Source: Octopus vulgaris (taxonomy: Eukaryota). From it: a DNA stretch of 64,000 nt. Positions 43,703-51,410 of this stretch are shown piece by piece. The notes beneath the pieces are model-generated. The model saw only the letters and a program-made list of their open reading frames with translations. It searched no databases and was not told the origin of the DNA. Every line of letters starts with the position of its first letter. Within the stretch, counting starts at the first letter, position 1. The DNA lies in NCBI GenBank assembly GCA_951406725.2, contig OX597829.1, positions 18,104,001 through 18,168,000 on the forward strand, in the 5' to 3' direction. The translations under genes and the position numbers were made by a program.

Positions 43703-44690
43703 CAGTGGTGGGCACAGCTAACAAAAAAAATTAGCGTAAGCTTACACGAACTGATAGCCGCTAACTCTTGTTATATGAATTTAGCTTCGGTTTTGTTTCT
43801 TGAGGTCTAAAACTCTTTAAAACAGGCCTAGAGGGCTGAAATCTTCATGTTGTAGATTGGTCACAGAGCTTTCCAAAAAGGTATAACATGCCAAGCTCAG
43901 ATAATGATCAAGGTGTACGCAAATAATTAAATGGACAAATGAAATCAAACATTAGTTTTTCGGTTAACATACACTTTATCTACTATACAAAAAGTATTAA
44001 ATGACTCAAAAATGTATAGTATACCTATTTCTTTATTACCCACAAGGGGCTAAACACGGAGAGGATAAACAAGGACAGACAAATGGATTTAGTCGATTAC
44101 ATCGACCCCAGTGCGTAACTGGTACTTAATTTATCGACCCCGAAAGAATGAAAGGCAAAGTCGACCTCGGCGGAATTTGAACTCAGAACGTAACGGCAGA
44201 CGAAATACGGCTACGCATTTCGCCCGGCGTGCTAACGTTTCTGCCAGCTCGCCGCCGCCCTTATGATACCTATGGTATAGTATACCATAGGTATCATGCC
44301 CAGATCAGATGATGATCAAAGTGCACTATTCTGGCTGGGTCTTCTCCATCGCCTCAACATGATGCTGGTTGCCCTTCATAAACATCAGCCTCATAAACAT
44401 CTGACAGGGTGGCTCTCTTTAGCCCAGGACCACCTTCGAGACGCCCTCTAACCAGGTCTTCACCAAGTTCTGCACCTTGGATTTCAGTGACCTGTGGTTC
44501 CTGCTCCTCCCGGAACCGAGTAATGTTACTGAAGAAATCATTTTCCTCATCCTCATTGCTGCTGGTACTGTCTCTACAATTCGTTACTCTGCTAACCTGG
44601 CTGTTATTATACTACTCCAGCCAGAACAGGTAAAACTTGGAATGAAAGGCAGCGGCCAGCTGGCACTCCAGGTCTTCTAGGAGGAGCCCA
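43703..44690 (-). mobile_element. Possible hAT transposon relic
   Basis: Terminus CAGTGGTGGGCACAGCTAAC; minus-strand peptide LAAAFHSKFYLFWL...ENDFFS resembles a hAT C-terminal region. Confidence 0.4.
44026..44258 (-). mobile_element. SINE family C, full length
   Basis: Head GGCGGCGAGCTGGCAGAAACGTTAG...GAGTTCAAATTCC (A/B boxes); TSD GTATAGTATACC at 44014-44025 and 44275-44286. Confidence 0.9.
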
Positions 44691-44879
44691 TGTGACATGT
44701 GACAAACATATTCCAACTACCATAAATTATGCTCATACCTAAACACCGCTTTGCGCCAATGCTTCGTTGTTTATCTCGATCGGGCGATCGACTAGCACAA
44801 ATCAGTCAACGTGTTGGCTGAATTATAATTAAAGTTACAAGCTTTATTTAGTTCACTCAGAGTTGCATCTCTTAGGGAC

Positions 44880-44926
44880 ATCTCATTGACAAGAGTCAAA
44901 ACACTCGAAACATCGGTGTCTGAGAT
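44880..44926 (+). ncRNA. Type I hammerhead ribozyme, U3:A8 variant
   Basis: ATCTCA-TTGACAA-GAGT(CAAAAC)ACTC-GAAA-CA(TCGG)TG-TC-TGAGAT; GUC triplet, predicted cut after 44920. Confidence 0.85.
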
Positions 44927-45224
44927 TCATAACAGATGGCGACACTGAACGAACTGGTGTTTTCACACCTTTTTACCATAAGAGAGATTTTTTTCTCCAC
45001 GTTAACTGCAGTGTTTTTGCCTTTAGTAGTTGAAATATGTGACAAACATATTCCAACTAGCCTAAATTATGCTCATACCTAAACACCGCTTTACGCCAAT
45101 GCTTCGTTGTTTATTTCGATCGGGCGATCTACTAACACAAATCAGTCAACGTGTTGACTGAATTATATATAAAGTTACAAGCTTTATTTAGTTCAGTCAG
45201 AGTTGCCTCTCTTAGGGACATCTC

Positions 45225-46299
45225 TGAGTCATTTGTGCTGCTGTTTTACTGAGTGAGTTTTTACCTGTTTTTGCTGTTGTTAATTCTTATTAATGTTTGT
45301 TATTAGATCTGTTGAAATTTGAACTTCAGAAGTCGCGCGTGGAGTTGTTTTTTTCGCCCTGCGGGGCGAAAAAAATTGTTATTTCTACTATTGTAGATTA
45401 TTTTGTGTTATTTGCTGAACTGTTTTCCCGTTGAGGAAGAATTAATCTTTCTTCACAAGACGTCTTTTCTGTGTGAGTTTAACCATGGAAGACGAGATGC
45501 ATCTCGAATTGAATTCCTTATAACTAACGTCGACTTCCCGCGACGACTGGAAGAAATCCCGTTTGAACAAGTCCAGCAGGTAAACCTACAAGGTGACAAG
45601 GAATTGAAAAAGGGCATGTGTCTTTCTGCCGCCGCAGGCGGACAATTTCAAGAAATACAAGTCTCAAAAGAGCAACTCTTCAAACACAAGAACCTAATTA
45701 AAAGAAATGGAAATGAAACTAGATTTATACCACCTAAGGAAATTTTGCAAAACTTAGCAGTAAAAACTGTGACTTATAAAATTTACAACAAAAAGGAGAA
45801 AAAAATTATGACTATGAAAAATGAAGCACTCGAGAAGGGTCTTGCACCAATATGGGATAAAATAAAATACGTACGGAGGGGGCCTGAAAACGCTACTGTA
45901 GAGGCCCAGTTCGAAAGCAAAGATATCGCTAAAGAAATATCAACGCTAAGTCTGAAAACAGAGGAAATTTTAGTACTATCCACGTACCTCGGCTGGAGGA
46001 CGGCTAAAATCATAATAGAAGAAATTCCGGCCGGGTTCGACGTGTACTGGCTAGCAGCGGCTTTAATATATGCTACCATGAGGGGGAAAAAGGATGTAGC
46101 CGTTGGACAGTAGACCAACAAGGAAAAAATGCAAGGAAATCTACATTTTTAAATCATATAAATCATTTATTTTTAACTTAATATATTTTTGTTTAAAAAG
46201 AGCAAACTGAAAAAAACTCGCTGAGTATTTCTTTATTAATGTTTTGTATTGTCCTGTACTGTCCTTCTATATTAGGTCTTATGATCATAAAAATAAATG
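45225..46299 (+). mobile_element. ORF1-only Tx1/L1-like non-autonomous retroposon
   Basis: 17-bp TSD TCTCTTAGG(G/T)ACATCTC (45208-45224, 46300-46316); 5' UTR, ORF1-like CDS, and a 3' end with AATAAA resembling the Tx1/SINE C tail. Confidence 0.75.
45485..46113 (+). CDS. Putative Tx1-type ORF1 (RRM-like), probably frameshifted near the start and C-terminally truncated
   Basis: Non-repetitive ~200-aa frame with YLGWRTAKIIIEEIPAGFDVYWLAAAL, resembling Tx1 ORF1; the ATG at 45485 is in a different frame. Confidence 0.55.
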
Positions 46300-46311
46300 T
46301 CTCTTAGGTAC

Positions 46312-46358
46312 ATCTCATTGACAAGAGTCAAAACACTCGAAACATCGATGTCTGAGAT
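46312..46358 (+). ncRNA. Type I hammerhead ribozyme, U3:A8 variant, second copy
   Basis: Same as 44880 but stem III is the perfect palindrome ACATCGATGT; predicted cut after 46352. Confidence 0.85.
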
Positions 46359-46539
46359 TCCAAACAGATGGTGACACTGAACGAACTGGATGTTTTCACA
46401 CCTTTTTACTATAAAAGAGATTTTTTCTCCAGGCTAACTGCAGTGTTTTTGCTTTTAACAGTTGAAATATGTGACAAACATATTCCAACTAGCCTAAATT
46501 GAGCTCATATACACACGCGCACGCACGCACACACACACT

Positions 46540-47574: not shown

Positions 47575-48567
47575 TTCGAGGCTGAAAGCAAAATCCATGG
47601 CGCGCCAGGTACTCATTGGAGAAATGCTCTTCGCAGGCGACGCAGCACTGACAGCGCACTCTGAAGAGCAAATGCAGCACCTCGTGGACAAACTATCAAA
47701 GGTCCGTCAGGAATTCAGCCTGATAATCAGTCTGAAGAAAACCAAAGCACTGGGACAAAGTGCCTAGCACTTCCCCACCATCGCCATCAATAGGTGAGTG
47801 TCCATCAATTCTCCTATCACTGATGATCTCTCCCTGAGATCAACAGGTGAATCAGACATGCATTCTCCACATTTGCCAAGCTCACAAAGAGAGTCTGGGG
47901 AAAAAAACTTGCTGCAAACACCAAGATTGCTGTTTATAAGGCGTGCGTCCTTAGTACGCTGCTTTACGGCAGTGAGATGTGAAGTCTCTACTCCAGGCAG
48001 AAGCTGTGTCTCAATATCTTTCACCTTCGTAATCTGAGAGGTATATTGAATATCAAGTGGACCGACCACATCACCAACACAGAAGTCTTCAACTGAGCCA
48101 AGATACCCAGCATACTCACCCTGTGCCAGCAGCGTCGCTTGTGCTGGCTCGGTCATGTACATCGCATGCCGGACAGAAGGATTCCAAAAGAGCTCTTGTA
48201 TGGGGAATTGGCCACTGGCACAAGAGCAAGAGGACGGCCTGAACTTCATTTCAAAGGTGTCTGTATGAGGGATATGAAGTCGCTTGTTATGGAGGTCCTG
48301 AAATGGGAGGAGGTTGCAAATGTGCGCGTCCACACTGGAGAGAAATACTGCGAAAGGTAAGAAGAGAGAAGAAGAAAAGCAGAAACTTGTCACCAAAGAA
48401 GAGCGGACTCGATGGAAGGAAAAACCAGTAGCACCGGCAGAAAGCTCCTTCAAATGCAGTCGCTGTATGCGTGACTGCTACTCCCATGTGGGCCTATAGA
48501 GTCACAACAGACGCTGCCTCACAATCAGCAGGTGACACGATTTCTTTGGGTGCAGATCCATGGATGC

Positions 48568-49157: not shown

Positions 49158-49277
49158 GCTTACGGCCATATCACGTTGAAAACACTGGTTCTCGTCCGAT
49201 CAGCGAAGTTAAGCAACATCGAGCCTAGTTAGTACTTAGATGGGTGACCGCTTGGGAAACCTAGGTGTAGTAAGCAT
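49158..49277 (+). rRNA. 5S rRNA, dispersed copy (probable pseudogene)
   Basis: GCTTACGGCCATATCACG...GTTCTCGTCCGATC..GAAGTTAAGC...AGTACTTAGATGGGTGACCGCTTGGGAA...GTAAGC; ~120 nt; no oligo-T terminator. Confidence 0.9.
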
Positions 49278-51239: not shown

Positions 51240-51410
51240 TTTCAAATTTTAACATAAGGTCAGCAGTTTCGGAAGGAGGGAGTAAGTCAATTACATTGAC
51301 CCCTGTGCATAACTGGTACTCATTTTATAAACTCCAAAAGGATGAAAAGCAAAGTCGACCTCGGCGGTATTTGAACTCAGAACGTAAAGACAAACGAAAT
51401 GCCGCTAAGC
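51240..51410 (-). mobile_element. SINE family C-related, degenerate
   Basis: Central domain AAAGTCGACCTCGGCGG..TTTGAACTCAGAACG. Confidence 0.7.

Follow-up and report, generated by a model that had tools for sequence, protein, structure and literature searches.

The window, a 64,000-nucleotide stretch of Octopus vulgaris DNA, contains about 2.1 units of a 340-bp tandem repeat, here named Rz1, in which a type I hammerhead ribozyme is predicted on the forward strand (Table 1). The second unit is interrupted by a 1075-bp insert (45225-46299) located in the 5' strand of hammerhead stem I, 18 nt upstream of the catalytic core, and flanked by target site duplications (TSDs). An initial sequence-only reading had placed a 1075-bp element in this strand, and its boundaries were reproduced in our analysis; its 17-bp TSD, said to restore the 6-bp stem I downstream, was likewise recovered, with one mismatch. 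The two TSD copies agree at 16 of 17 positions and differ by G/T at a base where the Rz1 family majority mixes subfamilies, and the 3' copy rebuilds the 6-bp stem I, the internal loop and the distal stem I. Hammerhead cores are present on both sides of the insert, as had been reported, and the predicted cleavage sites, after 44920 in hammerhead 1 and after 46352 in hammerhead 2, are indeed 1432 nt apart.

Table 1. Features of the Rz1 repeat and of its LINE-derived insert (positions of the window)
Feature	Position	Strand	Remarks
Rz1 unit 1, type I hammerhead tandem repeat	44697..45036	+	
Hammerhead 1, extended stem I	44861..44944	+	core 44886-44892 (U3-A8 variant), GAAA 44907-44910
Predicted double-cleavage product of 1432 nt (hypothetical)	44921..46352	+	geometry only
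Rz1 unit 2, 5' part, ends in the 5' TSD	45037..45224	+	94% to unit 1
TSD, 5' copy	45208..45224	+	17 bp, 5' strand of stem I
5' UTR of the inserted LINE derivative	45225..45484	+	72% match to the 5' end of relative L013
ORF1 pseudogene	45485..46072	+	start ATG out of frame, RRM-like region kept, ends before the CCHC knuckle
Subfamily A LINE 3' UTR, fused directly to ORF1	46073..46299	+	no poly(A) tail
TSD, 3' copy	46300..46316	+	one mismatch to the 5' copy
Hammerhead 2, rebuilt by the TSD	46300..46376	+	core 46318-46324
Rz1 unit 2 remainder and third-unit stub	46317..46509	+	unit 2 resumes at 46300 and runs to 46469

The Rz1 hammerhead fold comprises a 6-bp stem I, a UUGACAA core, a 4-bp stem II, GAAA, a short stem III and the GUC triplet; at the Rfam gathering threshold, the window gave no hammerhead match. 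Of 29 other Rz1 copies (L032-L060), 28 have U3 and 28 have A8, and such U3-A8 cores are a known natural variant (PMC3088659, PMC4209133) that is active in vitro (PMC3088659). A doubly variant core, with U4C on top of U3-A8, occurs in 19 of 57 copies (L032-L060, L199-L228). Of the 57 aligned copies, 55 could be scored, and each base pair of stems I-III is intact in 46-55 of these, with a few two-sided changes. The 2.8-Gb genome holds at least 1407 first-look candidates of Rz1, and 12 of 29 copies adjoin an inverted piece; adjacent inverted pieces are typical of Penelope-type insertions (PMC8557442). Rz1 is a dispersed, multicopy tandem repeat with a type I hammerhead and a unit within the 170-400 nt range, as expected of a non-LTR retrozyme. 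It shares with animal non-LTR retrozymes the tandem unit, the type I hammerhead with 6-bp stem I and 4-bp stem II, and the palindromic loop 3 (PMC7229834; bioRxiv 10.64898/2026.07.22.740005), and differs from them in its family-wide U3-A8 core, combined with U4C in a third of the aligned copies, and in that self-cleavage and circular RNA are predictions here. Three further retrozyme types, Rz2, Rz3 and Rz4, are related to one another, Rz3 and Rz4 resembling Rz2 in the non-ribozyme part, and have no blastn similarity to Rz1. Rz3 and Rz4 hammerhead repeats were found at the 3' flanks of six LINE loci (L104, L105, L108, L109, L112 and L114).

The insert itself is composite. Its bases 1-848 match the 5' UTR and ORF1 of other LINE copies at approximately 65-78%, and the counterpart of bases 849-1075 is the 3' UTR of subfamily A, a set of about 20 short LINE ends truncated on the 5' side; the ten best of these ends are 88-93% identical to the insert, and most of the set extends upstream into ORF2 sequence. 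Since a 5' UTR/ORF1 part is thus joined to the 3' UTR of an autonomous-type LINE, the insert is an internal deletion product, and the deletion removed the ORF1 C-terminus and the entire ORF2. When all 38 candidates were scored, the deletion joint was spanned by one of 42 matches, namely the window itself. The description of the insert as an ORF1-only retroposon was therefore not upheld: this copy is a single-copy, internally deleted relic of an L1-group LINE lineage (likely of the Tx1 clade), with a frameshifted and shortened ORF1 and a LINE 3' UTR. Membership of a HAL1-like family of ORF1-only elements was considered and rejected, as the joint has not been amplified and ORF1 is incomplete.

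The 5' junction of the insert and the deletion joint are bridged by contigs from three public sequencing runs (X1-X3; two studies, three organism labels), which stand at single-copy depth and differ from the window at 10/965, 20/952 and 20/952 positions (1-2%); among the pieces listed from these runs, none bridges the 3' junction. These contigs make an assembly artefact unlikely and point to an insertion that is shared and not very recent. Most of the differences listed for X2 and X3 cluster at 45498-45735, 240 bp of ORF1, where X1 lacks them; gene conversion is a possible cause. Contigs from a fourth run (X4, presumed RNA) match retrozyme bins and not the insert, and contigs of this kind cannot show ends or circles; the joints listed there derive from other retrozyme copies.

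The protein that had been read at 45485-46113 cannot be made as proposed: translation from ATG 45485 runs into a stop after 12 codons, and the 238-codon open frame, 45397-46113, lies in another frame. This ATG aligns with the start codon region of relative L013, and the early stop results from a one-base gap relative to that copy. The first in-frame ATG of the 238-codon frame, at 45616, reads ACG in all three public runs, and homology to ORF1 stops near 46072, short of the zinc knuckle (CCHC) present in relatives. The window copy is likely inert, without functional ORF1p. The conserved part of ORF1 is RRM-like according to Atlas features of relative L170 (ZCCHC3-type RNA-binding domains, score 0.91, rank 8); Foldseek searches with an AlphaFold model of the L170 ORF1 (pLDDT 66.6) gave RRM matches that were weak, none at E <= 0.001. 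The window frame itself had no Pfam match above cut-off and no usable Atlas match, a homolog search with the L063 ORF1 retained 0 of 3856 candidates, and the ORF1 profile compared with PDB gave weak knuckle matches alone, with E of at least 0.12.

Other repeats surround the locus. A 5S rRNA-like copy lies at 49158-49276 on the forward strand (Rfam RF00001, 96 bits) and may be a gene or a SINE head, and a common short interspersed repeat occurs twice, at 44085-44216 and 51279-51410, with 84% identity between the copies. Decayed RT-like reading frames of another LINE, presumably RTE-like by motif, occupy approximately 47580-48500 on the forward strand.

Loci around the ORF1 matches contain LINE remnants with endonuclease and reverse transcriptase (RT). 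In the frames of one of them (L153) we detected RVT_1 (E 2.7e-19) and, short of the cut-off, Exo_endo_phos (E 0.007), and homologs carry PF03372, PF00078 and PF13966 together. The top RT homologs include one named from Argonauta, and for homolog P0013 the best PDB match was human L1 ORF2p (E 2.7e-70, versus 3.7e-25 for R2). The domain order and the PDB matches of this homolog indicate that the parent lineage belongs to the L1 group. Within it, the Tx1 clade is the likely affiliation, as suggested by the combination of an RRM-like domain and CCHC in ORF1, which we take to be Tx1-like, and by the listing of L1-Tx1 for an octopus genome. TSDs and variable 5' truncation, the hallmarks of target-primed reverse transcription, are present across the lineage, and no intact autonomous copy was encountered among the loci fetched.

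The flanks of these relatives reveal where the lineage inserts. With the 3' end of the near-full-length copy L068 as query, which gave 607 candidates of which the best 40 were scored and 30 fetched, 25 of the 30 fetched loci (24 of 29 without the query) end on hammerhead sites: 16 on Rz2 (one of them stacked), three on Rz1, five on Rz3 and one on Rz4. The five misses were L097, L101, L111 (target start only), and L106 and L115 (junction lost). Where it could be parsed, the distance from the junction to the core is 20 nt in Rz1 and 27-28 nt in Rz2-4, compared with 18 nt in the window; as a background, 55 of 20000 randomly drawn window positions had a core-like motif starting 15-32 nt away. Lineage members at these sites measure approximately 0.4 to 5 kb, have TSDs of about 13-22 bp and are often stacked head to tail; the 12 loci with both ends all show TSDs, at lengths of 0.4 to 5.7 kb (the longest with a nested insertion). 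The TSDs and the differing 5' truncation points identify these loci as independent insertions. Another subfamily, B, is represented by its 5' ends, seven of nine independent ones adjoining Rz1 (one judged by eye). In subfamily B, L118 and L121/L125 have in common about 120 nt of a different upstream repeat, possibly a further target.

Target choice also has a phylogenetic component. A tree of ORF2 ends was built from 35 of 41 ends, six being omitted as too short. All 15 Rz2 copies fall on one side of a branch (support 97/94), the Rz1 copies L107, L110 and L113 group together (95/92), and subfamily A stands apart. The tree requires 9 changes of target label, versus a mean of 17.5 after shuffling, and Rz3 labels are unclustered. 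Target type, Rz3 excepted, clusters with LINE phylogeny.

Genuine ORF1-only elements do occur in other parts of the genome, where a separate family uses the Rz2 site. Its representative L156 (1.82 kb) combines a complete though decayed ORF1 with the knuckle, a stop codon, a 3' UTR and a 17-bp TSD in Rz2; L157 and L189 resemble it, and all three have ORF1 homology and a 3' UTR within 1.5-1.8 kb, without ORF2. A search with the 3' end of this family, whose query was on target, gave 218 first-look candidates, of which the best 40 were scored and 30 fetched, and 27 of these 30 loci end at the Rz2 hammerhead, 17 of them directly and the other 10 within head-to-tail stacks (three of the 27 belong to one array, and four stack calls are based on the target motif alone). 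In one Rz2 site at approximately 6.53 Mb of G000:C26 (L180, L183 and L196), several elements with this 3' end are stacked. In having ORF1 and no ORF2 these three elements are like HAL1, the half-L1 derivatives of L1 (PMC5753468), and unlike HAL1 they are site-specific and have an RRM-like ORF1 with CCHC. The window insert stands outside this family, being a single copy with a frameshifted, truncated ORF1 and another 3' UTR.

A published criterion for target preference is that more than 20% of flanks are of one type (PMC4494074), and the lineage lies well above it with 25/30 and 27/30 loci, fractions that are not genome-wide since they come from best-scoring subsets and since both queries were on-target copies. 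Against targeting, occupancy was low for Rz1, at 0/30 exact target sites, and higher for Rz2, at 5/24; within two mismatches, there are 294 Rz1 target sites. The sequence-only suggestion that this lineage targets the retrozyme proved narrower than the actual pattern, which extends to four retrozyme types, several LINE subfamilies and one ORF1-only family. We conclude that a LINE lineage very probably targets hammerhead retrozymes at the 5' strand of stem I.

The subfamily of the window copy is less strict. Only one of the 20 other subfamily A 3' ends lies in Rz1 (2/21 counting the window, below the 20% level); this copy, L004/L074, arose by an independent insertion into Rz1 at the very site used in the window and has a TSD of 18 bp, and a junction-pattern search for subfamily A in Rz1 returned L004 only. 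The expectation that copies of the insert would have retrozyme flanks was therefore borne out for the sister subfamilies, which are on target, and not for subfamily A, in which 19 of 20 other 3' ends are outside this retrozyme. No transduced retrozyme sequence was found at off-target subfamily A 3' ends, the flank being target-encoded wherever the TSD was resolved (19 loci scored; TSD unresolved in eight, including L006, whose 3' end was mis-called). Because subfamily A is mostly off target, and a CTC/TCT motif similar to that of the Rz1 site opens 13 of its 18 parsed flanks, the motif alone could account for this one insertion: a relaxed subfamily with a preference for a short motif of the CCTCT type would have hit Rz1 by chance, with the ribozyme irrelevant. 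Two of the off-target ends are in (TC)n runs and several off-target TSDs start at the same motif, as this explanation would have it. We nevertheless consider it improbable, given the second independent copy at the same Rz1 site, an event estimated at 0.1-11% by motif chance alone, depending on the assumptions, and given the strongly on-target sister subfamilies, in the light of which the motif preference of subfamily A is better read as inherited from retrozyme targeting.

Under retrozyme targeting, the endonuclease of the lineage likely recognises the 5' strand of stem I. By analogy with established LINE biology, the AP-type endonuclease of the parent would have nicked retrozyme DNA and target-primed reverse transcription would have copied the element RNA, after which a staggered second nick would have generated the TSD that rebuilds the downstream ribozyme. 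The internal deletion may have arisen by a template jump or after insertion. A multicopy retrozyme would provide a safe landing site and possibly also a source of read-through transcription, and the upstream ribozyme in the window would be an accident of landing in a two-unit array.

A further proposal assigns a function to the ribozyme. A Tx1-like lineage specialised on hammerhead stems would hijack retrozyme transcription and use the rebuilt ribozyme to form the 3' end of its RNA, with multi-unit arrays releasing circularisable LINE RNA; judged from sequence, such specialisation seems unlikely to us. Its predicted course would be read-through from the retrozyme, cleavage by the rebuilt downstream hammerhead about 53 nt past the element, replacement of poly(A) by a target-complementary 3' end, and, from arrays, release of a circularisable 1432-nt RNA, a chain of events that we likewise regard as doubtful. 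As the measured insertion points lie 18-28 nt 5' of the core, the downstream ribozyme is retained, and the 3' junctions of the lineage have no poly(A). A degenerate version of the target is found at the 5' ends of subfamily B, most clearly in L120/L233 (oriented positions 1475-1500), where a normal Rz1 TSD is followed by an element whose first 25 nt or so resemble the target, which hints at a putative ancestral read-through leader. Both cores of the window are intact, and their U3-A8 type is natural and active, as noted above. Pairing of the palindromic loop-3 strands could give a dimer helix of 10 bp (-12.3 kcal/mol); metazoan type I hammerheads have been described in this dimeric form (PMC4209133). 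The retained ribozyme, the lack of poly(A) and the subfamily B leader fit read-through with trimming, and they also fit plain endonuclease specificity. Against ribozyme use, only three of the 24 independent loci whose 5' junction lies on a retrozyme have a core upstream (the window, L159 and L155), and none of the 24 has a 5' leader starting at cleavage site +1. With the downstream core mutated in L159 and lost in L155, only the window has two intact cores; the two-ribozyme cassette is not the rule of the lineage. In addition, folding of the monomers into hammerheads costs 14 and 6 kcal/mol relative to the minimum free energy structure, in which the core is sequestered (secondary-structure energies, without tertiary contacts); an AATAAA-like signal is found at the end of the elements; subfamily A has continued to insert where there is no ribozyme; and the window copy stayed single with a broken ORF1. 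Finally, the retrozyme halves could be LTR-like parts of one composite retrozyme-LINE-retrozyme unit that moves as a whole, like Penelope pseudo-LTRs, which would agree with the retrozyme sequence on both sides of full-length copies and is very hard to reconcile with 5'-truncated copies of varied length, each with its own TSD in an otherwise normal retrozyme, with elements stacked head to tail with target sequence between them, and with most retrozyme copies being empty.

Hammerhead retrozymes are likely a target type so far unreported for Tx1-type LINEs. The literature covered, including the available part of PMC8869645, contained no report of Tx1 or L1 elements that target hammerheads or retrozymes, and such families may already be described in Repbase Reports or in Kojima and Fujiwara 2004. 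No retrozyme is among the Tx1 targets listed in the available text of PMC4494074, 'tx1' does not occur in the accessible portion of bioRxiv 10.64898/2026.07.22.740005, and neither 'ribozyme' nor 'target' in that of PMC13282606. Targeting by this lineage would extend the range of sites known to be used by sequence-specific LINEs to catalytic-RNA repeats, with one lineage diversified over at least four retrozyme types and accompanied by ORF1-only hitchhikers at the same site. If retrozymes are mobilised by Penelope-like elements, as published for other animals, there would be three tiers of parasitism. The range of subfamilies from strict to relaxed offers a natural panel for how AP-type endonucleases change specificity, and the use by a LINE of its target's ribozyme for 3'-end formation becomes a testable question.

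Among known systems, R2 has a 5' HDV-like ribozyme; unlike in R2, the ribozyme here is part of the target and is located 3' of the element, and any use of it is hypothetical. Like R2, which is co-transcribed with its target (PMC4494074), the lineage may depend on target read-through. The tandem stacks around a TSD are similar to those of SINEU-3 (PMC4494074). Target-specific LINEs of the Tx1 clade include Tx1L in Tx1D, Keno in U2, Kibi and Koshi in microsatellites, and Tx1-Mar in Mariner-N4_AMi (PMC4494074). Like these, the octopus lineage is of the L1 group, occupies a fixed site in a multicopy repeat, here another mobile element, and varies its targets by subfamily. In contrast to the Tx1-clade elements described there, it inserts into one strand of stem I of a catalytic RNA motif, in four retrozyme types, and its own place in the clade is assigned by probable affiliation.
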